62,162 bases of DNA from Eubacteriales bacterium (GCA_045531485.1 JAZSEC010000010.1:1-62162), one strand, 5' to 3'. Shown: positions 5,198 through 50,768, counted from the stretch's first letter. Translations and numbers: made by a program. Notes: generated by a model not told the origin, from the letters alone.

Positions 5198-5905
5198 TCA
5201 GCCTCTGAACTGTCCCTTGGTGAGAAACTCCGGAGCTATCTCAGGATTAAATCCATCCGGCTTTGTAATTTCAAGCATATTTATTTTCATGCCCTGCTCC
5301 GAGAAATTTTTCTCGTATTCGGTCATGATATTACCCTCGTTCCACTCGGAATTATGAAGATCACGTGTAAGCTTGGACAATGAAAGACCCATAGCCTCGA
5401 TCTCCTCAAGAGAGAAGTCAAAAAGACCTGCGTTGTCGGTTTTAAAGCGTAACGTACCCCCGTTTTTGAGTAAATTCATATACATCGCAAGATATCTGCG
5501 GTGGGTAAGACGACGCTTTGCGTATCCCTTTTTAGACCAGGGATCAGAGAAATTAAGGAATATCGCATCCACGCTACCGGGTGCGAAAATATGCATAAGA
5601 TTGTCCGCGGTGTCAATAAGGAAGCGAAGATTTTTCAGCTCGCCATACTCCCCGGATTTAGCCTTCTCCACGCAGAGAACAACACAATCGGTTACTCTTT
5701 CCATAGCAAAATACGCCGCGTCAGCGTGACGCGCTGCCATAGCACAGGCAAATCCACCCTTACCCGCACCTATCTCAAGGTAAACCTTGCCACCCGCAAC
5801 GCCCATAGCGGACGCAGGATCGCTCATAACCTCATCGGTTGTAAAAAGGTATTCTCCACAGGCAGCAAGACGCTCCTCGGTGTGCTTCTTTTTTCTCATT
5901 CTCAT
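5198..5905 (-). CDS. trmB: tRNA (guanine-N7)-methyltransferase
   Basis: MRMRKK start, LEIGAGKG SAM motif, LNFSDPWSKKGYAKRRLT, FKTDN, MTEYE. Confidence 0.96.
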   Translation of the reverse strand: MRMRKKKHTEERLAACGEYLFTTDEVMSDPASAMGVAGGKVYLEIGAGKGGFACAMAARHADAAYFAMERVTDCVVLCVEKAKSGEYGELKNLRFLIDTADNLMHIFAPGSVDAIFLNFSDPWSKKGYAKRRLTHRRYLAMYMNLLKNGGTLRFKTDNAGLFDFSLEEIEAMGLSLSKLTRDLHNSEWNEGNIMTEYEKNFSEQGMKINMLEITKPDGFNPEIAPEFLTKGQFRG

Positions 5906-7582: not shown

Positions 7583-7833
7583 TTTATTCCTTTCATAGCA
7601 TATTTTGAGTATATTTCCCCTCAAAATAGCATACTTCCCATTTTAATTATAACTAAAATATAATAACACATAAAAATATTTTTGTCAATAGTGATAGCAG
7701 AAAATGGAAGGCGAGAGGACTTTTTTCGCCTTCAAGTACTTATATCTGCAGAATTTACAAATCAAACGTTGACATCGCGGTAAGAAAACTTTATAATTAT
7801 ATTAAGATAACTAATGATTTGGAGCATACTATA

Positions 7834-8547
7834 ATGGTTAAGGCGATATTTTTTGATCTTGACGGCACTCTTTTGCCTATGGATCAGGACGTCTTTATAA
7901 AGGCATATCTCGGAGGTCTGGTAAAAAGACTTGCACCCAAGGGATACGATCCCGGGGCAATTGCAGGTGCTTTATGGACCAGCACCGGTGCTATGATGAA
8001 GAACGACGGTAAGCTCAGCAACGAGGAGGTCTTCTGGAACAGCTTTGCCGCTATTTTAGGCGAGGGTGTGCGTGATGAAGATGAAAGCCTTGATGAGTTT
8101 TACTCAGGCGAGTTCCAGAGCATCAAGGATGTGTGCGGATATACTCTGCTCGCAAAGGAGCTTATCGATCGGCTGAAGCAGACCGATCTACGAGTTATTC
8201 TTGCCACAAGCCCACTGTTTCCTACCGTAGCGACCGAAAGCCGTATACGCTGGGCAGGACTTGAGCCCTCGGACTTTGAATATGTGACCACGTACGAAAA
8301 CAGCCGCTACTGTAAGCCTAATCCCACGTATTACACCAATCTGTGCGAAAAGCTCGGCCTTAAGCCTGACGAGGTGGTTATGATCGGAAACGACGTTGGC
8401 GACGATATGGTTGCAGAAACGGTGGATATGCGTGTATTTCTGTTGACCGATTGCCTTATCAACAAGTCCGGAAGAAATATCAACGACTTCAGACACGGTG
8501 GATTTTCCGAGCTGATGAATTATATCGAGGAGATTATCAATGAGTAA
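7834..8547 (+). CDS. HAD-superfamily hydrolase
   Basis: FFDLDGTLL motif I, KP motif III, MIGNDVGDD motif IV; ATG at 7834 after GGAG. Confidence 0.9.
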   Translation: MVKAIFFDLDGTLLPMDQDVFIKAYLGGLVKRLAPKGYDPGAIAGALWTSTGAMMKNDGKLSNEEVFWNSFAAILGEGVRDEDESLDEFYSGEFQSIKDVCGYTLLAKELIDRLKQTDLRVILATSPLFPTVATESRIRWAGLEPSDFEYVTTYENSRYCKPNPTYYTNLCEKLGLKPDEVVMIGNDVGDDMVAETVDMRVFLLTDCLINKSGRNINDFRHGGFSELMNYIEEIINE

Positions 8548-8956
8548 GAGATTTTTTGCTATCATACTGATATTTGCAATGCTGCTTTTGGTTGGATGTA
8601 ACGGCGATTCCGGTGTCGGCGGAAACAACGAAGGCAATAGCAACGAAAACGGAGGAAACAATATGAACAACGGCAGCACCGAGAATGGCGGAAGCAAATC
8701 AGACGGCTTTGTGCTAAAGGCTATCGTAAAGTCAGTAAATGACGATATGATAGAGGTTGAGGTTATAGAAAGCGACTATGCCTTCGGCATTTATTGGGTG
8801 CGTACCGGCCTGTTGACTTCGTACAGATCAGCAGACGGTGGCATCGCTGCCAGAAGCGATATCAAGGCGGGCGACACCGTAAGGATCACCTACAACGGCC
8901 AGACCATGATGAGCCTGCCTCCCCAGATCGTAGCGATCGTTATTACAATAGAGTAA
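8540..8956 (+). CDS. lipoprotein, YobA/DUF3221-like OB-fold
   Basis: Lipobox LVGC, Gly/Asn linker, C-terminal DIKAGDTVRITYNGQTMMSLPPQIVA pattern. Confidence 0.65.
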   Translation: MSKRFFAIILIFAMLLLVGCNGDSGVGGNNEGNSNENGGNNMNNGSTENGGSKSDGFVLKAIVKSVNDDMIEVEVIESDYAFGIYWVRTGLLTSYRSADGGIAARSDIKAGDTVRITYNGQTMMSLPPQIVAIVITIE

Positions 8957-37260: not shown

Positions 37261-39906
37261 TTACTTGTAGTTAAGCTCGCCGCCCTGTTCTGCAACGTAA
37301 GCTGCCCACTCGGAGTCGCTGTAGTTGTAATCCATGATACGGAAGCCGCCGAAGCCGTACATGATGTTGTAGGAATCGGTGTAATCCTCGATCTTGTAGG
37401 AGTTAAGCGAACATACGGTGGTAACCGCAAGAGGAATTCTGTAGTAGAACTTAAGGTATCTCTCCTCCATCTGTGCGGTGATGTAAAGCTTAGTCTTGTT
37501 GTCAGCGTTAGCAAACTTACCGGTACCGACCATGGACTTAGACCACTGCTGCCATGTCATGGTAACTTCCTCGCCGTTAACCTCAAGGGTAAGCATCGTG
37601 GTCTTGGGATCCCAGCAACCAAGCTCGTTTACGTTGTTCTCATCGGGATCGCAGTAAACGCCGAAGTTACGGAAGGGATAGAACGCAGCACCGCCCCACG
37701 CACCGTAACCGATAGCGTAAAGACCAGCAGCGGTATCGCCGTATCTGTCGTTGATGTTGCCAAGGGGCTCAAGAGTGATGGTGCCGAAGCCGGTACCCTC
37801 AAGAGCAGCGTTAAGATGCTTCTGGATAATAGAGCACTGGGCGTCATCATCCTGAGTAAGAGCACCCTTTGCCCAACCGATCTGGATCGTGATGGGCTGA
37901 CCAGCAGTGTAGAGACCATCTGCTACAAGCTCCTGACAAGCCTTAGTGAAGAGTGCCTTAGCCTCGGTCTGGTTGTAACCGGTAATGGAATCGTGAGCTT
38001 CCTCAAGAGTAGCATAAAGCTTGCCGGGACCGTACTCTACGCCGTAGAGGTTAACGATAGCCTGCATAGCCTCATCAGACTTTCTGTAAGAAGAAGCGGG
38101 ATCATTGTAAATGTCGTAGTGGTAGAGGTGGTTCATAAGGGAGAACGCAGGAGTCCATGCCTGAGTTGTAGTTACGAAGTCAGCTCTATCAATTGCAAGA
38201 GACATAGCCTTACGGAAGGTGTCGTTGCTAAGTACTACGGAGTTCTGGTTCTTACCGGCAGCATCAAGACCCTTAAGGGTTTCAACGTTGGTGTGGAAGA
38301 AGAAGGACATGGTGTAGGTCTCATCAACAACCTGAAGTCTGTCAGAAAGCTTATAGTCGTTAAGCTCGGATGCGGGGGGAGACCAAGACATGATTTCACC
38401 CTTCATGAACTTCTGCTTAGCAGTGTTCTCATCCATAACGTCGATAACTACCCTGGTAGTCATGTACTGCTGGAGGTAATTGCCGTCAACAGCGAACTCG
38501 GTGTAGGATACGAGGTTACCGTCAGCGGTCTTCTCGAAGCCGTACCAGTTCTCGTTCTGCTCGTATACAACCTGCTTACCATCCTCGAATACGGTCATCT
38601 TATAAGTACCGTAAGACATGGTGGTATCAAGAGAAGTACCGTAGTTAGTAACGATAAGGCCACCGGACTCCTTCTTACCAGCCTCATAGAGACCCTGGTG
38701 AACGAGCCAAGTGTCGGTACAAGAGGTCATGAAGTAGTTGAAGTCGATAGCGGAAGCACAAACGTAAAGGAAGCTGTACTCACCGGTCTTAACAAGACCA
38801 ACGCAATCCCAGCCTGCACCAACGTTCTCGTTTACAGAGTAGATGGATACCCAGCCTGCATAGTCAGCACCTACCTCAATGTAGGGACCGTAGCCGTATA
38901 CTTCCATAAGGAGGTACCAGAGATCTGCACCGGAGATGTAGTCAACAAGCTCGCCGTTCTCATCAACGATAGGATTACCGTCCTTATCAGAGTAGTAGTA
39001 AACGGTCTCATCAGTGATAGCAAGCCACTGAGGACACTCCTCACCAGCCTCGGAGAGGTAGCCCTTGGAACCCCAAGAGGTCCAAGCGTCAACGTAGAGA
39101 GTCTCACCAGCGTCGATAGCTTCCTGGTTGGAATTGTAGCCCTTAGAACCTACGCCGTTGTAGTAACCCTCATCAAGAGAGTAGTAGTAATCGAAACCAC
39201 CAGCAATTGCAGACTCACCGGAGATGTAGAGGTTAGCTCTGTAATTCTTCATCTGGGGATTAAGAAGCTGCTGCATGGAGTAAACGTAAGAATCAGCATT
39301 GATAGGAGTACCGTCTTCCCACTTAGCGTCGGGATTGAGGGTGAACTCGAATACGTAACCCTTGGTAACGTCAGAAGCGGTCTGACCCTCGGGAAGATTT
39401 ACCTTATACTGAGTAAGGAGGTCCTGCTTCTGAGCAGTAACGTCCTTAATACCGGTAGCCATTTCGCCAACCCACTGATAAAGGCCTTCAACAGTGTCAA
39501 GAGCCTCGATAGTTACGAAGGGAGAGGTGATATAGCCGAGCATAGAGGACTCAGCGCTGGTCTCCCAGGTGTGGGGGTTCCAGTTGGAGCCAAGAGCGGT
39601 TGCGTAGCTATTGTAGGTGTAGCTACCAAGCTTAGCCTCGGGAAGAACTGCGTCATCAGGACGAACAGGAGTAACGAATTCACCACCGAGATCGGGGGTA
39701 ACGGGATCTTCCTTGTCGTCATCATCACCGCCGCCAGCGGGGGGAGTTACGTCATCGCCGTCGCCACCTGCGGGGGGTGTATTTCCCTGATTGTTGTCGC
39801 CGTTATCGCCATTATCGCCGTTGTTGCCGAAGAGGCCACAAGAAACGAGCATGGAGAAGCACATAACAACTACAAGGAGGAGTGCAAGAATTTTTGTACT
39901 TTTCAT
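37261..39906 (-). CDS. oppA: oligopeptide ABC transporter substrate-binding lipoprotein (OppA, family 5)
   Basis: Lipobox LVSC; WNPH, AKWEDGTPINADSYVYS, SYGTY and FRKAMSLAIDR motifs; first gene of the operon. Confidence 0.9.
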   Translation of the reverse strand: MKSTKILALLLVVVMCFSMLVSCGLFGNNGDNGDNGDNNQGNTPPAGGDGDDVTPPAGGGDDDDKEDPVTPDLGGEFVTPVRPDDAVLPEAKLGSYTYNSYATALGSNWNPHTWETSAESSMLGYITSPFVTIEALDTVEGLYQWVGEMATGIKDVTAQKQDLLTQYKVNLPEGQTASDVTKGYVFEFTLNPDAKWEDGTPINADSYVYSMQQLLNPQMKNYRANLYISGESAIAGGFDYYYSLDEGYYNGVGSKGYNSNQEAIDAGETLYVDAWTSWGSKGYLSEAGEECPQWLAITDETVYYYSDKDGNPIVDENGELVDYISGADLWYLLMEVYGYGPYIEVGADYAGWVSIYSVNENVGAGWDCVGLVKTGEYSFLYVCASAIDFNYFMTSCTDTWLVHQGLYEAGKKESGGLIVTNYGTSLDTTMSYGTYKMTVFEDGKQVVYEQNENWYGFEKTADGNLVSYTEFAVDGNYLQQYMTTRVVIDVMDENTAKQKFMKGEIMSWSPPASELNDYKLSDRLQVVDETYTMSFFFHTNVETLKGLDAAGKNQNSVVLSNDTFRKAMSLAIDRADFVTTTQAWTPAFSLMNHLYHYDIYNDPASSYRKSDEAMQAIVNLYGVEYGPGKLYATLEEAHDSITGYNQTEAKALFTKACQELVADGLYTAGQPITIQIGWAKGALTQDDDAQCSIIQKHLNAALEGTGFGTITLEPLGNINDRYGDTAAGLYAIGYGAWGGAAFYPFRNFGVYCDPDENNVNELGCWDPKTTMLTLEVNGEEVTMTWQQWSKSMVGTGKFANADNKTKLYITAQMEERYLKFYYRIPLAVTTVCSLNSYKIEDYTDSYNIMYGFGGFRIMDYNYSDSEWAAYVAEQGGELNYK

Positions 39907-40124
39907 GGTAAAAAAGTCCTTTCTTAGAGTATTGTTTATATTTAGCCTATGTTAAATATTCTTGATTTAACGGATAGTAAATATACAAATATGAAATCCA
40001 TTTAACTATAAAATAAATAAATATTTTATAAAATGCTTTTTGCACCGAGCAGAAGTGCTGTGCCTCCTAGCCGGGTGCAACGTAATTGGTCTTCTGAACT
40101 TGCGAAAATGAAATAGATGTGCCT

Positions 40125-40153
40125 ATTATACAACATATCCTTTGATTTGTCAA
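40125..40153 (-). promoter_or_regulatory. sigma-A promoter of the opp operon
   Basis: Perfect TTGACA-17 nt-TATAAT, ~220 nt upstream of oppA. Confidence 0.8.
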
Positions 40154-40642
40154 CCCTTTTTTGAATATTTTTTTCACTTTTTTGACGATATTTTTTTGCT
40201 TCGCTTCATTTTCTGTCATTTTAATGCCATTTTTTGCAAGAATTTGACAGTTCCTTGCATTTTTGACAGTTTTTGATGTATATTTATACATTGAATATGC
40301 ACTGTTTATGCATTGAATTTTTATTCGTTATTTTGTGCAAAATAACGATTTTCAACTTTTAACACCCCTCAATCAAAGGTCGAATAAAGCTTTGTTTTAT
40401 GCATTTTTAACAAAATATGGCTGTTTTAGTGTTTCATTGTCAAATCAAAAGCCATCCGTACGTATACCGCATACCTGTTATTTTATTAACTTTTTGAAGG
40501 TTTTTCCTTCAATGGTAAAATTTTTCCGTTTTCTACATTTATATTTATATAAGAAAAGGTTTTTTGATAATCATCTTGCAAAAAACACAATAATATAGTA
40601 TAATTGATATGTATTTTACGATAATTGGTGAGGAGATCCGGT

Positions 40643-41518: not shown

Positions 41519-43288
41519 ATGGTAAATCTTAAAGCTAAACCCTATTGTCTGTCGGACAGCGACATAGCATGGGTACAGCAGACCATTGCTGACATGACCC
41601 CCGAAGAAAAGGTTGGTCAGCTCTTCTTCCAGCTTACCGCAAGTCAGGAGGAGAATTATCTTAAGGAGCTTATGGAAAAGTATCATCTTGGCGGCTGCAG
41701 ATACAACAGTATGCCCGGTGAGAAGGTTCTCGCACAGAACAAGATACTTCAGAAGTATGCAAAGATCCCCGTATTTATCGCATGCAACCCTGAGAAGGGC
41801 GGCGACGGTGTTTGCCCCGACGGTACCACCGTTGGTGCAGGTATCAAGGTGGGTGCTACCGGTAAGACCGAGTACGCCGAGGCGATGGGCCTTGTTTCCG
41901 GTGCACAGATCGCTGCAACCGGCTGTAACATGGCATTTGCTCCCGTCGTAGACATTCTTTATAACCATGAGTGCGAGGAGGTTCTCTCCCGTTCCTTCGG
42001 CAACGATCCCGAGAGAGTTGCCGCTATGGGTAAGGCATACATGGACGGCCTTCACAAGACAGAGGGCGTTGCCGCTACTGCAAAGCACTTCCCCGGAAAC
42101 GGTCAGGACTACCGTGATGCACACATCTCTAACAATATCAATAATTTCGGCCACGATAAGTGGATGGAAACCTACGGGCATGTATACAAGACCCTTATTG
42201 ACGGCGGTCTTGATGCTATCATGGGCGGACATATTCTTATGCCCGAGCTTATGAAGGACGTAAAGCCCGGCATTACCTACGAGGAGATGCTGCCCGCTAC
42301 TCTTTGTTATGAGATTATGACTACTCTTCTCCGTGACGAGCTTGGCTTCAACGGTATGGTAGTTACCGACGCCTCTCACATGGTTGGTATGACCAATCAG
42401 ATGACCCGTCGCGAGATGCTTCCCCTCTCTATCAACGCAGGCTGTGATATGTTCCTCTTCTTCAACGATCCCGACGAGGACTACGGAACCATGCTTGACG
42501 CATATAAGAACGGCATCATTTCCGAGGAGCGTATGGTAGAGGCTCTTACCAGAATTCTCGGCCTTAAGGCTAAGATGGGTCTTAACAAGAAGGCTAAGGA
42601 GGAGCTTTGTCCCGACGGATCCGAGCTTCAATCCATCCTTCACAAGCCCGAGTTCGCTGAGTATGCTCCCAAGATCAGCCGCGACGCGGTTACCCTTGTA
42701 AAGAATCTTGATAAGGACGTCCTTCCCCTCTCTCCCGATAAGACCAAGAGAATTATGATAGTTCCCATCAAGGGCGTGGATAATCCTCTTATGGCTCTGG
42801 CAGCTATGGCTATGGGCGGCGGAATGGCAAGAAAGACCCCTGCCGAGAAGCTTAAGGAAAGACTTGAGGCAAAGGGCTTTGAGGTTCGCATTTACGAAAG
42901 CCCCATCGACAAGATGAAGGCTATGATGGCTAGAGGCGAAAAACCCAGCCTCAACCTCTACTTTGCAGGCAAGCACTCTATCGCAGACTTCGTATCCGAG
43001 CAGGATCTTGTTATCTCGCTCTTCGACGTTATGAACGGACATCCCTCCTTCGGTCTCTCCAAGGGCGGCGGTGAAATTCCCTGGTATGTTCACGAGCTTC
43101 CCGTTGTGGGCATCAGCGTAAACAAGCCCACTATGCTCGCCGACTGTCCTATGCTTCGCACCTACATCAACGCATACGACTCCGCAGATCACACTATGGA
43201 TGCTATCGTTGACGCTCTTGTAACCGGCGACTTCCGCGGCGTGGATCCCATCGACTCTTTCTGCGGCATGTGGGACACCAGAATATAA
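41519..43288 (+). CDS. cytoplasmic GH3 glycoside hydrolase (NagZ-like branch)
   Basis: EEKVGQLF, FAPVVD, RSFGNDP, AKHFPGNG and LRDELGFNGMVVTDA motifs; no signal peptide. Confidence 0.92.
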   Translation: MVNLKAKPYCLSDSDIAWVQQTIADMTPEEKVGQLFFQLTASQEENYLKELMEKYHLGGCRYNSMPGEKVLAQNKILQKYAKIPVFIACNPEKGGDGVCPDGTTVGAGIKVGATGKTEYAEAMGLVSGAQIAATGCNMAFAPVVDILYNHECEEVLSRSFGNDPERVAAMGKAYMDGLHKTEGVAATAKHFPGNGQDYRDAHISNNINNFGHDKWMETYGHVYKTLIDGGLDAIMGGHILMPELMKDVKPGITYEEMLPATLCYEIMTTLLRDELGFNGMVVTDASHMVGMTNQMTRREMLPLSINAGCDMFLFFNDPDEDYGTMLDAYKNGIISEERMVEALTRILGLKAKMGLNKKAKEELCPDGSELQSILHKPEFAEYAPKISRDAVTLVKNLDKDVLPLSPDKTKRIMIVPIKGVDNPLMALAAMAMGGGMARKTPAEKLKERLEAKGFEVRIYESPIDKMKAMMARGEKPSLNLYFAGKHSIADFVSEQDLVISLFDVMNGHPSFGLSKGGGEIPWYVHELPVVGISVNKPTMLADCPMLRTYINAYDSADHTMDAIVDALVTGDFRGVDPIDSFCGMWDTRI

Positions 43289-43314
43289 TAAAACAAACAA
43301 AAAATATAAAATAC

Positions 43315-43345
43315 AAAAAAGGCAGGAGAAATCCTGTCTTTTTTT
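43315..43345 (+). terminator. terminator after the GH3 gene
   Basis: GGCAGGA-GAAA-TCCTGTC followed by T7. Confidence 0.85.
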
Positions 43346-43400
43346 GCTTTATAAAAACCATCATTCCCTCCCCTTCAAGCCCCGTTGCCCATAACAAATC

Positions 43401-43430
43401 AAAAAGCAGACCCCCGAAGGGCCTGCTTTT
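43401..43430. terminator. bidirectional terminator at the islet boundary
   Basis: AAAAAGCAGACCCCCGAAGGGCCTGCTTTT. Confidence 0.75.
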
Positions 43431-43545
43431 CGTTTTGTGAGTAATCTAAAATTTTGATACGATTTTATAATGGGTTCAAATTTTAGAATGATGGGGGCTT
43501 TTGGGGTAAAGATTTGCACCTATTTTTAGTTTGATAAGTTGAAAT

Positions 43546-44430
43546 TCAAATGGTTTCTATTTTTGATAATTTGATAGCCTGCTGTTCTGCTATAGGTAAG
43601 TATTTTTGATAGTATGTGCTATCTGTTACGTTATACTTATTACCCACAAAAACCCATTCGCAGTATTCGTAAAATAAAAAGTATTCAAGTGTATTTAACC
43701 AGTTAGTATACGAAATTCCCTTTTCCTTGAGTAGATTATCATAATAATAATCAATAGCAAAGCTCTTATCTGCGTTTGTCATATAGAAAAGAGCATCTTC
43801 AACCTCTTCGGCATGGGCTATCAATCGTGCAAATGCTGTGGGATACGGCAAAATACCCCCACATTCCCAATCTATCAATACAGCCTTTTCATTACTGCAA
43901 ATAACATTAAACGGCAGCAAATCATCATGACATAGAGTTCGAGGTATAGATTTATACACTCTCAGGAATTTATCATACGCTATTTTTAACTGCGTGTTAT
44001 TTAAGAACTTCCCGCGGTTTTTACGTTGAATTAAACTTTTATTAAAAGAACATTCCAGATAGTCCGTTGCTTCCATTTCCCAGGTTTGTTTCTGTAAAGA
44101 AATCAAAGCATCCAAAACGCACATTAATTTAGTGCGATTGCATCTGCACAAATCTTCACCCTCTATATATTCTAGTAGAAGATATGTTTTTTCGTTAATT
44201 GTTATAACTTGATATAAAGCGGGAACACTCGTTTTTGCAGTAGCAAGGACAGTAGAATAGAGTTCTTGTTCGTTCTCTTTTGCTTCTTTAAGAATGTATT
44301 TGGCGTTATCGGTATCAATTATCCACACTTGATAAGGCTCATTATCTTCTTCATGTTTTAACTGTGTTATGGATGCTTCTTTGGGTATAGAGACAACATC
44401 AATGCGGTCTATAATTTCCTTCAATTCCAC
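43546..44430 (-). CDS. aminoglycoside phosphotransferase / choline kinase-like family protein
   Basis: YILK, LLLEYIEG, TLCHDDLLPFNV (Brenner-type motif) and LIDWE. Confidence 0.85.
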   Translation of the reverse strand: MELKEIIDRIDVVSIPKEASITQLKHEEDNEPYQVWIIDTDNAKYILKEAKENEQELYSTVLATAKTSVPALYQVITINEKTYLLLEYIEGEDLCRCNRTKLMCVLDALISLQKQTWEMEATDYLECSFNKSLIQRKNRGKFLNNTQLKIAYDKFLRVYKSIPRTLCHDDLLPFNVICSNEKAVLIDWECGGILPYPTAFARLIAHAEEVEDALFYMTNADKSFAIDYYYDNLLKEKGISYTNWLNTLEYFLFYEYCEWVFVGNKYNVTDSTYYQKYLPIAEQQAIKLSKIETI

Positions 44431-44470
44431 TTTTTATAACTCCGTCAAATTCTTATTTATCGATAAGTTG

Positions 44471-44499
44471 ATTATACCACAAAATCTAACGATAATCAA
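44471..44499 (-). promoter_or_regulatory. promoter of the phosphotransferase module
   Basis: TTGATT-17 nt-TATAAT with an extended TG. Confidence 0.75.
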
Positions 44500-44520
44500 G
44501 GCGTTTCTTCAGTAAATCAC

Positions 44521-44843
44521 AAATTGAACGATACCCCATAAAGTGAACGAAAGGTGTATAAAGTGAACGATTTATATTTTACGGTAAAAAACAAAAAAGG
44601 CTTGCAAGGACAAAAATTATCCCTGCTAGCCTCAATTTTTACTATAAAATCTATAAAAAAGGGAAAAATACCCCCCATTTTGGCAATAAAAAAGCCATAA
44701 TACCGATATTCTTCATATCAATATTATGGTTTCTTTATGTGAGTAATTGGTGAATAGGATACAAAAATCCTAATGGGTTCATTTTGCAAAATGGGTTCAA
44801 TTTTTATAGAAAATGGGTTCACTTTTTGCAAAAAATGGGTTCA
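44521..44843. repeat. two opposed arrays of short direct repeats (3x TGAACGA on +; 4x TGAACCCAT on -)
   Basis: TGAACGA at 44525/44544/44564; ATGGGTTCA at 44773/44791/44813/44835. Confidence 0.85.
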
Positions 44844-44861
44844 ATTTTAACGATAGGTAGA

Positions 44862-45353
44862 TTAATGATTCGTTATATATTGTTCGATGATTACCGACCA
44901 TTCAGTTTCTCCTGAATAATCGGAATGACCATACTTATAGTGTTCCTTCCCCTTCGGATCTAAAGAATAATAAAACTGACCGTTGGGAGCAATTATATCA
45001 TATCCATTTGGATATACAACACATATAACATATCCTTCATAAGTATAAATCCAATCGACCGGTGCAGGAAAATAAACGACTTCCTGAATAAATGTTAGTG
45101 AAGATATTTCATTCATTAATTCAGATATTTTCTCGCCGTCTTCGGTTAAATTATTTAAAACACACAATGGTGTGTTTTCATCGCGGAGATTTTGTATATC
45201 ACTTTCGGAATATGATTTTTCCAAATAATAGATTTCTGCCTCTAAGGTTTGCCAAGATTCTCCTGAAAAAGCTATATTCTTATCAACTCTACCACAAGAA
45301 CATAAAGACAATGCTATCGCAAATAATAGTATTGAAGTTATCAGTTTTTTCAT
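44862..45353 (-). CDS. hypothetical lipoprotein
   Basis: Lipobox LCSC; ATGA overlap with the upstream four-helix-bundle gene. Confidence 0.8.
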   Translation of the reverse strand: MKKLITSILLFAIALSLCSCGRVDKNIAFSGESWQTLEAEIYYLEKSYSESDIQNLRDENTPLCVLNNLTEDGEKISELMNEISSLTFIQEVVYFPAPVDWIYTYEGYVICVVYPNGYDIIAPNGQFYYSLDPKGKEHYKYGHSDYSGETEWSVIIEQYITNH

Positions 45354-45697
45354 TTTCCATTCTCCTTTAGAGTTTTACAACTTGAAATAAGCATACGTCT
45401 GATTCTACCGCACAGATTTCGATGGTTTTTGTATGTTTCTTCATCAATGCCATTTGTATTAAACAGTAGCTGTAACCAGCCTTCCGTTTCACTACATTCT
45501 TTGAGTGCAATTTCAAATTTTGAAAGCATATCTGCTTTACTTTGACCGTAATTTGCCTCACGGATATTGGCATAAACACTACTTGAACTTTTTCGAATTT
45601 GAAAAAGTGTGTTTGACGGCGCTTTAATGCTTTGGCACATCAATTCAATATCAGTCGCAAGCTGTTCGGAATATATCAACAAATAATTCTTTGACAT
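45350..45697 (-). CDS. four-helix-bundle protein (23S rRNA intervening-sequence protein / bAvd-like family)
   Basis: QIRKSSSSVYANIREA...SKADMLSKFEIALKECSETEGWLQLL signature; 115 aa. Confidence 0.9.
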   Translation of the reverse strand: MSKNYLLIYSEQLATDIELMCQSIKAPSNTLFQIRKSSSSVYANIREANYGQSKADMLSKFEIALKECSETEGWLQLLFNTNGIDEETYKNHRNLCGRIRRMLISSCKTLKENGK

Positions 45698-45717
45698 AAT
45701 ATCACCTCTTTAAGTGT

Positions 45718-45746
45718 ATTATACCACATTCTAACATTAAAATCAA
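45718..45746 (-). promoter_or_regulatory. promoter of the four-helix-bundle / lipoprotein module
   Basis: TTGATT-17 nt-TATAAT with an extended TG; homologous to 44471-44499. Confidence 0.75.
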
Positions 45747-45932
45747 GGCGTGAGCCTTGTATATCATCAATTTCGCAGAAATTGCATATCATCCGTCCAA
45801 AAACGAGTATATCTCGCTTTTGGACGAGTATATCATCAAGTCGCAGAGGAATACACCTTCGGTGATGATATACTCGCCTGAGGCGAGATGATATACGCCT
45901 TGCGGCGATGATATACCAAGTCTGCGACTTGG
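45744..45932. repeat. symmetric multi-hairpin element with six GYATATCATC/GATGATATAC motifs
   Basis: Forward motifs at 45759, 45784 and 45828; inverted motifs at 45864, 45887 and 45907; short hairpins in between. Confidence 0.9.
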
Positions 45933-45934
45933 AT

Positions 45935-45970
45935 AAAAAAATAGTGCAGAAAAGTGTATCCTTTTCTGCA
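45935..45970 (-). terminator. tRNA-Leu terminator
   Basis: On the - strand, TGCAGAAAAG-GATACA-CTTTTCTGCA followed by CTATTTTTTT. Confidence 0.8.
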
Positions 45971-45978
45971 GTATTTTT

Positions 45979-46063
45979 TGGTGCGGATGACGGGACTTGA
46001 ACCCACATGAATTGCTTCACTGGAACCTGAAACCAGCGCGTCTGCCAATTCCGCCACATCCGC
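45979..46063 (-). tRNA. tRNA-Leu(CAG)
   Basis: GCGGATGTGGCGGAATTGGCAGACGCGCTGGTTTCAGGTTCCAGTGAAGCAATTCATGTGGGTTCAAGTCCCGTCATCCGCACCA: 85 nt, long variable arm, anticodon loop TT-CAG-GT, encoded CCA. Confidence 0.96.
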
Positions 46064-46097
46064 TTATTTCGAGGCTTCATTTTCTGAAGCCTCGATT

Positions 46098-46126
46098 ATT
46101 ATATCATATCGCCTTTAAATTGTCAA
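46098..46126 (-). promoter_or_regulatory. sigma-A promoter of tRNA-Leu
   Basis: TTGACA-17 nt-TATAAT with an extended TG. Confidence 0.8.
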
Positions 46127-48047: not shown

Positions 48048-50768
48048 TCATTTTCTCTTAAAGATAAGATCAACTGCATCACCTACCGACTTGATAGATT
48101 TATTACGCTCGGTAATGACCTCGTCGCATATCTCCTCAATGTCGGGATCGGAATCTCTCAGATGCTTCTTAAGCACCCCTCCTGCTCCAAGGCCGTAGAG
48201 GTTCACGAACTCGGTAACAGCCTCCCTAAGTCCTGAATCGTCATGGCGTACAAGCGTCGCAAGAGTCTGGGATGCGTTGCAGATATCCGTGGCACAGCCG
48301 AGGATCAACGAGATAGCAGAGGCAGCACCCTTACGGTCTGCCATAAATCCCTTGGCAAAGCCGCTCTCGTCCTCGAAGGAATCCTCAAACTCCCTCTGAT
48401 AATAGTCATAAAGCAGATCAAAATCAAAGCTTCCGTCGGTAAGGTAGCTCGCGATAAGCTGATAGGTACAGGAGGTCTCCTCATCCTGATTCTCAAGATC
48501 AAGATTATAGCTCTTGATATATCTGCCGATATTTCCTCTTACGTCACCAAAATCGGGCATACGTGAGGCGATTTTAAACGCACCCTCAGTCTCGCCAAGC
48601 TCACACTTACGCACAAGCTCAAGGTAGTCAACAATTAGCATATACTGAGGATGTCCCTTGATAAGAGGATTCTTCTCAGCGTAATCAAGCAGCTCGGAAA
48701 GTCCGTCCTTGCCATAATCAGCCTTAAATACGTCGGCAAATACATAGGCAATAACGGGGTATATTATTCTCTCACGGAATGCCTTGGCAACATCTGCAGG
48801 AAGTGCGGCAGACGCCATCTTATCGAGGCGAAGAAGGTCGCGAAGTCCGGAGGGAGCAACCACAACGGGTGCCGCCGTAAAGCGTAAAAGAAAATCAAGA
48901 TAGCCTACGGGTGAGAGATGCGAGGTCGCCTTATATGCCTTAAGAAGCTTGTCACCGCGTATATGGGCAGGCATACCTGCAAGAATACTAACCAGTATCT
49001 CAATACCTACACCGCTCTCAAGAGCATAGCGGAAGGTGATGTCCTCGCAGAAGCCACTGTGCTGGGTAAAAATAGCAGCAAGTCTTCCGTCACCGCGTGC
49101 AAGGTGCTGGGCAAGAATCAAGGTGAGATTATTTGCCATAAGCTCGGTAATATCACCCTTCTCCCTACCAATACGTCTGTTAATAAGACTGACAAGAAGA
49201 GTCGAAAGCATATCGCATTCAGGCACCATCTCAAGACAAGTGGTACATACCTTCATTTTCTGTGTCGAATTAAAGGCGGGATAGTGACGGTCAAGGAAGG
49301 TCACTATATGTGCCTGGATCTCAGGCGTACGAATGGAGAGCAGAAGCTTTTCAAGAACGATATCACGTGTAGCAACCGGCTCTGCTCTGAAATGTGCATC
49401 AAAGAAGGCGATGATCTGTGGCTGAAGGAATCCGCCGTAAAATACACGGCTGAGATCCTCGTTGATTACAGCCTTGACAGCATCGGTTTCACCGTCGTAG
49501 TATCTGGTGATGAAGCAGAAAAGACTGTCCCTCATCAGATCCACGTGTATCAGCCTGAGCAATACGTCGAGAGCAACCGCCTTAGCCTCCACACGCTCCT
49601 CGGGATACAGACGTGACAATCTTGAGAACACGCTGTCGGGAATGGCGGTGTGGGTGTCCGTGTATTTATTGAGAGGTCTGTAAACTCTTACTCTATGCTC
49701 CACAAGGAGTCCCTCACGGAAGCGTGCATACACGTCCATAAGGTTACAAAGCGAGTCGTCATCTGGCACGACGGTCTGTTCAACGTAAAATCCGCTGCAC
49801 TGCCAGAAAAGGAATACGATATCCCTCAGTGTATCAATATCGATGGTACGTATACCGTATTTTTCGGTAATTCTCGAAACAAAGGGCAGGAACTGCTCTC
49901 TGATCTTCGGATATTCGAAGAGCGAATAGAGGAAGGATACGAGCGATGCATTATTCTCATATCCGTCAGGTGCCCCACTTACTGTATTATTGGCAAAATC
50001 ATAGAATGCACCCGCCTCGGAGGGAACCGACTGAACCGACGAATCAAGACACTTGATCTTGAAGTAGGGATAATCGTTTACCCTGCTGACATAGCTGACG
50101 AAGGAAAATTCCTCACGAAGAGTGTAAGGCAAAACGCTCATGATCGCATTGAGAAGCGACAGAGCCTCTGCCGATGCATCCTTATCACTGCAGGGCAGAC
50201 GGAAGAACACACTTCTGTTTCCGCCACAGATGCTGCAAAGAATTGCATAGATCAGGCCCTTAACCATCTCACCGTCGTATTTACCAACCGTTGCCCTATG
50301 ATCCGAAAGCGACTTAATAATATAGTCCATCTTAGGAAAGGCGGGGTTGGGTGCGGCAAGTCTGGAGGTAATGTTGAACCTGGATATATCCTTATAGAAG
50401 CTGCCGGGATTAAAGCAGTCTGCCAGAGGATTGCCAAGCACCGAGGTCATCTCCTCCTCGGTAAGAACGAGCGTGTGTGCAAAATAAGCACTGCGTTCGC
50501 CTGTAAAGTCGACGGGAGCATAGCTTACCGCGGTCTGTGCCATCATGCCCGAGGGCAGACGGATCTGGCTATATACGGGAGAAAGCTCGCCGCGTCTGAT
50601 CCTCAGGGGATCGTATATATCCAATCTGTTCAGATAAACCAAGGAAAGCTCGCCGAGAATAAGGCTCGGCGAAAGCTCCGATGAATGAGCAAAGGTGTCG
50701 AAGCCATCTCGCTTATTAAAAAGACTTACACGTGCGGGCACGCGGGAATATAAATGCTGGTATGACAT
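48048..50768 (-). CDS. 906-aa protein with probable GAP1-N2 / GAP1-M-like N-terminal domains and a helical C-terminus
   Basis: QHLYSR...DGFDTFAHS, SYAPVDFTGERSAYFAHTLVL and LLNAIMSVLPYTLREEFSFVSY resemble my recollection of GTPase-associated protein 1 domains; the family call is unverified. Confidence 0.55.
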   Translation of the reverse strand: MSYQHLYSRVPARVSLFNKRDGFDTFAHSSELSPSLILGELSLVYLNRLDIYDPLRIRRGELSPVYSQIRLPSGMMAQTAVSYAPVDFTGERSAYFAHTLVLTEEEMTSVLGNPLADCFNPGSFYKDISRFNITSRLAAPNPAFPKMDYIIKSLSDHRATVGKYDGEMVKGLIYAILCSICGGNRSVFFRLPCSDKDASAEALSLLNAIMSVLPYTLREEFSFVSYVSRVNDYPYFKIKCLDSSVQSVPSEAGAFYDFANNTVSGAPDGYENNASLVSFLYSLFEYPKIREQFLPFVSRITEKYGIRTIDIDTLRDIVFLFWQCSGFYVEQTVVPDDDSLCNLMDVYARFREGLLVEHRVRVYRPLNKYTDTHTAIPDSVFSRLSRLYPEERVEAKAVALDVLLRLIHVDLMRDSLFCFITRYYDGETDAVKAVINEDLSRVFYGGFLQPQIIAFFDAHFRAEPVATRDIVLEKLLLSIRTPEIQAHIVTFLDRHYPAFNSTQKMKVCTTCLEMVPECDMLSTLLVSLINRRIGREKGDITELMANNLTLILAQHLARGDGRLAAIFTQHSGFCEDITFRYALESGVGIEILVSILAGMPAHIRGDKLLKAYKATSHLSPVGYLDFLLRFTAAPVVVAPSGLRDLLRLDKMASAALPADVAKAFRERIIYPVIAYVFADVFKADYGKDGLSELLDYAEKNPLIKGHPQYMLIVDYLELVRKCELGETEGAFKIASRMPDFGDVRGNIGRYIKSYNLDLENQDEETSCTYQLIASYLTDGSFDFDLLYDYYQREFEDSFEDESGFAKGFMADRKGAASAISLILGCATDICNASQTLATLVRHDDSGLREAVTEFVNLYGLGAGGVLKKHLRDSDPDIEEICDEVITERNKSIKSVGDAVDLIFKRK

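Follow-up and report, generated by a model that had tools for sequence, protein, structure and literature searches.

The four-helix-bundle family PF05635 is known from open reading frames (ORFs) of 23S rRNA intervening sequences and as Avd of diversity-generating retroelements (DGRs), where it goes with a stable-RNA-gene insertion flanked by long inverted repeats. Tycheposons of Prochlorococcus reportedly carry or depend on tyrosine recombinases, have partial tRNA copies at their flanks and extend over kilobases to tens of kilobases. They are cargo elements that pile up at the tRNA genes of small genomes (bioRxiv 10.1101/2020.12.28.424599), the Tn4451 serine recombinase acts at a 2-bp identity (PMC5704250), and the attachment (att) sites of large serine recombinases (LSRs) have 25-bp half-sites, 50 contacted bp, a distal zinc-ribbon motif and a central dinucleotide (PMC3783163). 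Gut-1 was published as a free-standing, orphan non-coding RNA candidate without an assigned function, seen in human gut sequence only (Weinberg et al. 2010, PMC2864571). Here we describe a locus in a 62,162-nucleotide stretch of an Eubacteriales bacterium (GCA_045531485.1 JAZSEC010000010.1:1-62162; hereafter the window, on contig C12 of a 1.85-Mb genome that is 91% complete). Its AT-rich island at 43436-45978 probably comprises two tandem members of a large family of self-contained cassettes of ~1.2-1.3 kb, inserted between the 3' CCA of tRNA-Leu(CAG) and what is read as the original terminator of this gene. More tentatively, and with somewhat less than even confidence, we propose that the family could constitute a new gene-capture system of Firmicutes, with recombinase-less, self-insulated cassettes, a generic landing pad at the 3' ends of tRNA and transfer-messenger RNA (tmRNA) genes, arrays that extend themselves, and a hairpin ladder plus an Avd-like protein among its machinery. 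In full-text searches we found no description of this cassette family, the Gut-1 motif being its sole published piece, nor any integrative and conjugative element (ICE), integrative and mobilizable element (IME) or insertion sequence (IS) with such ends. An earlier note on this DNA had proposed a candidate system of non-autonomous, self-promoted cassettes accreted in tandem, a reading that the analysis supports; none of the three outcomes that the note had named as contrary to it was seen.

Each cassette comes with a head that holds a new terminator for whatever precedes it, followed by regulatory repeats (a Gut-1-like ladder in one type, TCGTTCA repeats in the other), by cargo under a near-consensus promoter, and by a tail ending in CA (Table 1). 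The first base of cassette 2 is the one next after the tRNA CCA; it spans 45978 down to 44738 in the order A-run, terminator hairpin, T-run, hairpin ladder, promoter, four-helix-bundle gene, lipoprotein gene and tail, whereby its head is of the E type and its tail of the C type. Cassette 1 starts at the base directly after the tail of cassette 2 and spans 44737 down to 43436, with a B-type head containing a terminator hairpin, two further hairpins, three TCGTTCA repeats (TGAACGA on the + strand, at 44519-44570), a promoter, a kinase gene and an A-type tail. The island genes all lie on the - strand, which is the strand of the tRNA, and the island is bounded by a GH3 glycosidase gene and the tRNA gene. 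Its GC content of ~32% (0.31-0.39 over 43400-45999, against ~0.48-0.53 in the flanks and 46% in the genome) agrees with the AT-rich modules described in the earlier note. The region holds 13 terminator-like hairpins compared with 1.8 +/- 1.5 in shuffles. The hairpin at the far end of the island is read as the native terminator of tRNA-Leu(CAG), probably pushed 2.5 kb away, since it resembles terminators directly 3' of other tRNA genes in the same genome. This arrangement is shown by comparison with related loci, and in it a cassette transcript would end at the terminator that its insertion displaced.

The motif TGTGAGTAAT-N10-GATAC-N7/8-TAATGGGTTCA, which the earlier note had placed at the boundaries, is real (43436-43478 and 44738-44781), and these two occurrences are its sole matches in the whole genome, with none for the reversed control pattern. 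The note was right about the site and wrong about the polarity: instead of starting each module, the motif is the 3' tail of each unit, ending ...CTCACA. Likewise, both terminator-like hairpins it had pointed out are present, but they do not share one role, as the outer one is the displaced tRNA terminator and the inner one belongs to the head of cassette 1. Its shared promoter block is found in both modules: the two 41-nt blocks (44464-44504 and 45711-45751) are 73% identical and score highest of all promoter-like sites on the - strand of 43250-46100, at 10/12 each (TTGATT-17-TGnTATAAT). The cargo was also named correctly, namely an APH-fold kinase in one unit and a four-helix bundle with a lipoprotein-like ORF in the other, all on the - strand. 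Features that the note had not mentioned are the TGAACGA repeats, the hairpin ladder and the repeat AATGGGTTCA, which occurs five times, with four copies in a run at 18-22 bp spacing (44772-44843). We considered a Tn7-like end on account of the TGT tip and these spaced repeats and set it aside, as they occur at the tail only with no second inverted end; TnsB was not searched for.

The evidence that these are discrete units comes first from their borders. Copies were aligned on the junction, and the mean identity between pairs was calculated for the 20 nt before and the 20 nt after it. For the B heads (10 rows, two of which are the hairpin read backwards) it rises from 41% before to 94% after the junction; for nine copies of the A tail it falls from 86% to 35%, and for 16 copies of the C tail from 73% to 39%. 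Differences between genomes hence break at the very sites at which the earlier note expected them to. At both window cassettes and in all aligned copies, the two sides share CA only, with the tRNA CCA leading into the head and the tail CA closing the unit; such 2-bp direct repeat flanks are what is looked for in serine-recombinase elements. Every B head and E head examined begins directly after the CCA of a tRNA, a tmRNA or a tRNA fragment, or after the CA of a tail, and what follows a tail is either a native-looking terminator or the next head. The terminator that stands directly 3' of tRNA-Leu(GAG) and tRNA-Leu(TAG) in the window's own genome (contigs C52 and C19) sits behind an A tail, ...CTCACA, in locus L014, which provides one filled-against-empty comparison. 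The comparison of the GH3-tRNA interval across strains that had been suggested could be carried through in part: the GH3 gene was matched in 18 of 120 other genomes, where synteny was lost, and no clean empty site emerged for this position. Within the 1.5-kb flanks of the 19 GH3 loci fetched there was no tRNA, and cassette parts were seen only in L116 and L119.

The second line of evidence is the spread of the cassettes over genomes and tRNA genes. A search beyond the window, as the earlier note had advised, found parts of the island in 38 of 61 genomes, its own included: they match 29/36 other genomes of the genus and 8/24 single genomes from other families of the order, often at several places per genome and many of them at contig ends. 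Among 599 candidate stretches (one genome per species), at least 460 hold a gene related to the four-helix-bundle gene together with the same head; the best 80 of these are 89-98% identical, and come from metagenome-assembled genomes (MAGs) labelled as Oscillospiraceae, Acutalibacteraceae, Lachnospiraceae, Eubacteriales, Clostridia and others, from ruminants, other animals and the human gut. Of the 57 loci in which the sequence extends for >500 bp upstream of the four-helix-bundle gene, 37 have a tRNA or tmRNA gene on the same strand whose 3' end is within 450 bp of it, representing 11 tRNA species and tmRNA; in the remaining 20, the head is mostly behind a tRNA 3' fragment left by another island or behind the tail of another cassette. 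Once the relatives' loci in Oscillospirales MAGs are counted, heads are found behind 15 tRNA species and tmRNA. For instance, the head hairpin of cassette 2 also stands 3' of tmRNA, tRNA-Thr, tRNA-Glu and tRNA-Leu genes in other genomes, and the B head of cassette 1 begins, in eight copies, right behind tRNA-Pro, tRNA-Leu(GAG), a tRNA fragment or other tails. The upstream region of cassette 1 is conserved in L013-L016, L022 and L033. In the window's own genome, only tRNA-Leu(CAG), a single one of 35 tRNA/tmRNA genes, is occupied by a cassette head. As a side observation, two fragments at contig starts (C73:289-409 and C57:400-432) resemble the B-type promoter region, which suggests that further copies may have broken the assembly there.

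Third, related cassettes recur at different tRNAs, as in the pairs window/L034, L096/L110 and three further ones. The lipoprotein cargo of cassette 2 is also found behind tRNA-Ser(GCT) in L034, with 91.6% identity over 1097 bp; between L096 (Ala) and L110 (Val), the homology stops at the tail end; and L101 (Leu) and L048 (Tyr) likewise bear related cassettes. Across the family, one finds whole units of uniform make-up (terminator, promoter, cargo and tail within 0.6-2 kb), and the head hairpin lies 5-9 nt from the junction in every head, even as it comes in more than 10 sequence types. Summed over contigs, the depth of heads and tails is 10-100 times that of the cargo in four metagenomes of gut or faecal origin, each from a different study.

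The cargo is correspondingly varied. In E-type cassettes, where the conserved four-helix-bundle gene comes first, 63 ORFs located directly behind it group into 38 clusters unrelated to one another; a 4-bp overlap between the stop of this gene and the ORF behind it is present in 38/79 loci. Few of the 38 representatives match a Pfam family; those seen are GNAT (2), YbjQ, nucleotidyltransferase, Exo_endo_phos, YcxB, a WapI-like immunity protein and DUF6678. A B-head cassette on an IMG/VR contig (L113, 1-6000) carries a four-gene LlaJI-type restriction-modification operon, consisting of two C5 methylases, an AAA_5 protein and a LlaJI-type endonuclease; downstream of this cassette are DUF2800 and PD-(D/E)XK genes typical of phage-like elements. 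Tail type tracks cargo and head type tracks tail type, and heads, middles and tail tips are reshuffled even between otherwise close cassettes. As to the cargo of the window itself, the 294-aa kinase falls below every NCBIfam cut-off (APH(3') 20.4 vs 205) and only the general fold family PF01636 passes; we accordingly rejected its assignment as an aminoglycoside-resistance APH equivalog. The 163-aa lipoprotein-like ORF matches no Pfam or NCBIfam family.

Table 1. Features of the two-cassette island and its borders (positions counted from the first letter of the window).
Feature	Position	Strand	Evidence and remarks
tRNA-Leu(CAG)	45979-46063	-	ARAGORN; Rfam tRNA 48.7 bits; 3' CCA end (45979) is the proximal insertion junction
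Cassette 2 head (E type)	45936-45978	-	A-run, terminator hairpin 45945-45970, T-run; terminator scan
Cassette 2 head dyad arm AGGATAC, in hairpin loop	45956-45962	+ (GTATCCT)	dyad analysis
Hairpin ladder (E array), ~190 bp	45745-45935/45940	-	between head terminator and promoter
Cassette 2 promoter	45718-45746	-	TTGATT-17-TATAAT with TG
Four-helix-bundle gene, 115 aa	45350-45697	-	PF05635 68 bits (cut-off 33.8); TIGR02436 75.8 (cut-off 24); PDB 2RLD E 9.5e-17
Lipoprotein-like ORF, 163 aa	44862-45353	-	cargo; start overlaps four-helix-bundle gene stop by 4 bp
Cassette 2 tail (C type)	44738-44861	-	TGAACCCATT x4, then GTATCCT (+ strand AGGATAC 44756-44762), ends ...ATTACTCACA at 44738
Cassette 1 head (B type)	44686-44737	-	TAAAGAAACC..., terminator hairpin 44695-44729; terminator scan
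Cassette 1 head dyad arm TTGATAT, in hairpin	44715-44721	+ (ATATCAA)	
Cassette 1 upstream region	44505-44685	-	terminator-like hairpins 44659-44676 and 44604-44626; 3 TCGTTCA repeats
Cassette 1 promoter	44471-44499	-	TTGATT-17-TATAAT with TG
APH-fold kinase, 294 aa	43546-44430	-	cargo; PF01636 34.3 bits (cut-off 23.2)
Cassette 1 tail (A type)	43436-43545	-	...TGAACCCATT, then GTATCAA (+ strand TTGATAC 43454-43460), ends ...GATTACTCACA at 43436
GC-rich terminator	43400-43432	-	terminator scan; read as the native terminator of tRNA-Leu(CAG), displaced 2.5 kb
GH3 glycosidase gene	41519-43288	+	

How such units might move is hinted at by a symmetry between the two ends of a cassette. In cassette 2, GTATCCT lies 19-25 nt before the tail end and AGGATAC 17-23 nt into the head; cassette 1 has GTATCAA in its tail and TTGATAT in its head at the same positions. 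When the tail of a cassette is compared with its own head, the best inverted repeat (9-12 nt, at most one mismatch) has its centre exactly between the C and the A of the terminal CA in 13 of the 18 cassettes of this class; the symmetry centre also falls on CA in both window cassettes. The dyad comes in two versions, GTATCAA/TTGATAC and GTATCCTTTTC/GAAAAGGATAC, and heads with GATAC or GATAT go with 6/9 GTATC tails as opposed to 0/21 other tails (read from the row listing). Junction and symmetry centre were located independently of each other, and both coincide at the CA. Since tail and head carry inverted repeats equidistant from the junction, closure of a cassette into a circle would create a pseudo-palindrome of 48-50 bp around a central dinucleotide. 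Such a site would fit the attP architecture reported for LSRs (PMC3783163) as well as the 2-bp identity used by the Tn4451 recombinase (PMC5704250). The tail, moreover, resembles a tRNA end: on the + strand it reads TGTG...TTGATAC with the latter at 19-25, next to TGGTG...TTGAAC at 19-24 in the tRNA.

We propose that a cassette would travel in circular form, with conservative site-specific recombination taking place at the CA dinucleotide; in the class found here, its tail would thereby be joined to its own head as the ~50-bp pseudo-palindromic site. The tail could act as a mimic of the tRNA 3' end (TG(G)TG at its end and TTGA(T)AC 19-25 bp in), such that a resident cassette would become the next landing site and arrays would grow. 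We infer mobilisation in trans: the enzyme would be supplied from outside the cassette, with an LSR as the best candidate, although we regard its being the mobilising enzyme as less likely than not. The four-helix-bundle protein and the hairpin ladder appear to be parts of the E-type head, and they might serve either in the control of expression or as aids to recombination.

The genome encodes three LSR genes, all off the window's contig (on C80, C81 and C40). One of them, a 589-aa gene at ~140-1992 of contig C80, ends ~13 nt from the 3' end of tRNA-Pro(GGG) in convergent orientation, and the hairpin behind this tRNA is the element's. LSR elements also occur at the same tRNA 3' ends beside heads in five of 79 loci (L038, L089, L090, L093 and L103). 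One could be resolved, a 24.5-kb element in the 3' end of tRNA-Tyr whose ends lie on one contig (L103 at ~5700, and L135); it has an 11-bp core, CTCCCACCAAA, and its reconstructed attP shows a perfect 10-bp dyad, GGTTCGGATA...TATCCGAACC. In this attP, the distance from the CCA to GGTTCG is 5 nt larger than in the tRNA itself, which is the relation between attP and attB reported in PMC3783163.

Several observations weigh against the cassette reading or against its proposed mechanism. The window contains no recombinase gene: profile searches with PF07508, PF00589 and PF01797 gave no match on contig C12, as the earlier note's remark on a lacking integrase implied, and the three PF00589 matches of the genome lie on other contigs. 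The dyad is absent in other tail classes (G, D, K and H), and a general head-tail dyad over all classes was rejected, with own pairs scoring 9.3 against 8.7 for mixed ones (sd 1.9, 30 pairs). The right half of the target, i.e. the native terminator, is not conserved, which is unusual for a serine integrase, and the tRNA arm TTGAAC lies at an attP-like distance rather than 5 bp closer as published for attB (PMC3783163). The adjacency of LSR elements was dropped as proof, because the resolved case is a conventional insertion with a longer core than the CA of the cassettes and the adjacency may be coincidence. The circle junctions that the earlier note proposed to look for did not turn up: the contigs of four metagenome runs, the best of them with 23-30% of the sampled words, show no joint at 43435/43436, 44737/44738 or 45978/45979 and no excision product, circle or empty-site read, although a part that lacks cover or a joint in such contigs carries no evidential weight. 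In a separate metagenome scan, a tail joined to a B head was met on one contig, which is not circular. A collection of 72,556 plasmids gave no match, and a phage collection gave a single one, to an unverified gut contig of 8.9 kb. Lastly, there is mosaicism, as the window and L034 share the middle 1.1 kb and differ in head hairpin and tail tip, and part of the cassette diversity may therefore stem from ordinary recombination. An E-type head joined to a B-type leader at the shared promoter block, seen in contigs of two metagenomes (44481 to 45740, with 11 other letters between), implies that heads and cargo are also reshuffled at the promoter.

With regard to viral sequences, the phage-collection contig (L033) is GenBank MT836745.1, entered as 'UNVERIFIED: Bacteriophage sp.', and has an A/B cassette at 7720-8569 behind a tRNA-like ...CCCACCA end; it is bacterial-looking DNA with neither a tRNA gene nor annotation. 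A scan of viral contigs with the B-head pattern returned two contigs, of which one is the restriction-modification cassette and the other lies beside tRNA-Pro and phage-like genes. The corresponding scan with a ladder pattern returned 116 stretches with a real ladder in none of the 80 listed, and was discarded as too loose.

The ladder of cassette 2 is built of three TATATCATC linkers followed by three inverted GATGATATA linkers with small free-sequence hairpins between them, the last of which reaches into the -35 box; GATGATATAC or its complement occurs five times between the hairpins. The single-strand fold of the ladder has an energy of -51 kcal/mol (z -9.8 vs shuffles), and across 32 copies the linkers are invariant while 17 of the 37 predicted pairs show compensatory double changes. 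Other cassettes keep the design with different linkers. Against the Gut-1 model (RF01706), the window ladder reaches 25.9 bits at 45844-45919 (+), below the gathering score of 50; sibling heads with GTGAAAT or GTGATAT linkers (those of L066, L037 and L111) pass it, with scores of 77.8, 64.6 and 55.7 bits. The earlier note's description of the system as integron-like without attC holds in that the tails show no attC-like imperfect palindrome; a structured element, namely this ladder, is nevertheless present. In two loci, L036 (~5700-5790) and L091 (~2470-2520), there is an extra insertion in the loop of the first ladder hairpin.

These hairpins raise an alternative to movement as double-stranded circles, namely that the cassettes move as single-stranded DNA, either by an IS200/IS605-like HUH enzyme, which would make them passengers of the palindrome-associated (PATE) type, or by an integron-like tyrosine recombinase on folded DNA, with the head hairpins or the ladder in the role of attC or of transposon-end hairpins. 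The constant placement of a hairpin close to the junction in every head, and the preservation of ladder pairing through changes of sequence, are what one would expect from it; attC sites and the ends of IS608 likewise evolve with pairing kept, and HUH transposition inserts 3' of a short target with no duplication. We nevertheless consider it unlikely. The B-type cassettes, which have no ladder, are inserted at the same junction, and so the ladder is not the insertion site itself; the tails have no conserved hairpin, the head hairpins are of too many sequence types, and neither an integron integrase nor any other tyrosine recombinase is encoded on the window's contig. IS200/IS605 or PATE elements in particular were rejected, given a hairpin at the head only with none at the tail and zero matches to PF01797 (Y1 transposase) in the 91% complete genome.

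A second alternative is that the units are decayed remains of integrase-driven tRNA islands, i.e. cis-mobilizable elements (CIMEs), whose conserved ends would be old att arms. The 3' ends of tRNAs are classic island sites, and decay with accretion leads to tandem integrase-less islets as set out in PMC5704250; true cases even lie beside the cassettes, such as the tRNA 3' fragments in L026, L039 and L085 and the 24.5-kb LSR element in tRNA-Tyr. For the cassettes themselves this explanation is very unlikely, as they have no duplicated tRNA 3' end at their flanks and share the CA alone (the island likewise holds no copy of the tRNA-Leu 3' end, as the earlier note stated), one and the same head stands behind 15 tRNA species and tmRNA, which is impossible for an att core made of tRNA sequence, and the units are complete and uniform rather than random leftovers. 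Separately, in L026 (3730-4230) the tRNA-Leu(GAG) 3' end occurs three times, with inserts of ~170 and 240 bp, followed by a cassette head; these repeats are remnants of conventional integrations at tRNA-Leu(GAG).

The remaining alternative, that nothing here is mobile and that a vertically inherited layout of insulating terminator, operator array and strong promoter behind tRNA genes merely has its cargo swapped by homologous recombination between conserved parts, would account for the mosaicism of heads, four-helix-bundle gene, cargo with tail, and tail tips and for the E head joined to a B leader, but is the most improbable, given that one of 35 tRNA/tmRNA genes is occupied in the genome, that occupancy varies between species of the genus, that the four-helix-bundle protein is 89-98% identical across differently labelled MAGs (the best 80 of at least 460), that the island lies 14 points below the genome in GC, and that homologous recombination has no means of seating an initial cassette, precise to the base, behind a tRNA gene that holds none.

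Two further features of the neighborhood may be recorded. Two genes beyond the tRNA, at 48048-50768 (-), a 906-aa protein combines GAP1-N2 and GAP1-M domains (GTPase-associated protein 1, a predicted component of conflict systems). On the other side, a second AT-rich stretch at 39900-40620 (GC 0.27-0.34) is a 0.7-kb intergenic region between a - strand secreted-protein gene and a gene for a HAD hydrolase, and shows no recognisable head or tail of a cassette.

Should the inferred mobility hold, the cassettes would represent an undescribed, integron-like means of collecting and exchanging accessory genes in gut and rumen Clostridia, with enzymes of the drug-modifying type, immunity proteins, surface lipoproteins and restriction systems among the cargo at stake. 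The design would be economical and reusable, in that a unit equips what lies upstream with a new terminator and itself relies on the old one, thereby leaving the tRNA unharmed. Gut-1, an orphan since 2010, and the widespread PF05635 proteins would gain a place in genomes and a role open to testing, and the CA-centred tail-head dyad makes the question of the mover directly accessible to experiment.

In relation to known systems, the ladder shares with Gut-1 the plan of three small free-sequence hairpins and a fixed linker (PMC2864571); it differs in its GATGATATAC linkers and in that the Gut-1-like part is one half of an inverted pair standing between a tRNA terminator and a promoter. Unlike the 23S rRNA intervening sequences and DGR Avd, the element here sits behind the stable-RNA gene, with no sign of RNA excision and no reverse transcriptase nearby. 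CIMEs are similar as integrase-less tandem units at a tRNA 3' end that are presumably moved by a recombinase from elsewhere; they are, however, described in the text of PMC5704250 as decayed ICEs or IMEs with att repeats holding the end of one target gene, whereas the present cassettes share only CA, use many tRNA species, and are tiny, uniform and complete. With Tn4451-like and other LSR elements, as portrayed in PMC5704250 and PMC3783163, they have in common the two-base flanking identity, and a joined tail-head site would resemble theirs in being a pseudo-palindrome of ~50 bp with 25-bp half-sites, conserved motifs in distal position and a dinucleotide at the centre; unlike in those, no recombinase is inside the unit, the target lacks a conserved right half and the 5-bp shift of attB is missing. 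The closest parallel in overall logic is with integron cassettes and clusters of attC sites lacking integron integrases (CALIN): in both, small units of one or a few genes with diverse cargo are arranged head-to-tail at a fixed platform and have a conserved 3' element, and the cargo spectrum of acetyltransferases, nucleotidyltransferases, kinases, immunity proteins and lipoproteins is alike. In contrast to these, there is no IntI on contig C12 and no attI, each cassette has its own promoter and terminator instead of depending on a common Pc, the tails are made of direct repeats and ...CA and not of an imperfect palindrome, any tRNA or tmRNA gene offers its 3' end as the platform, and the hosts are Firmicutes.

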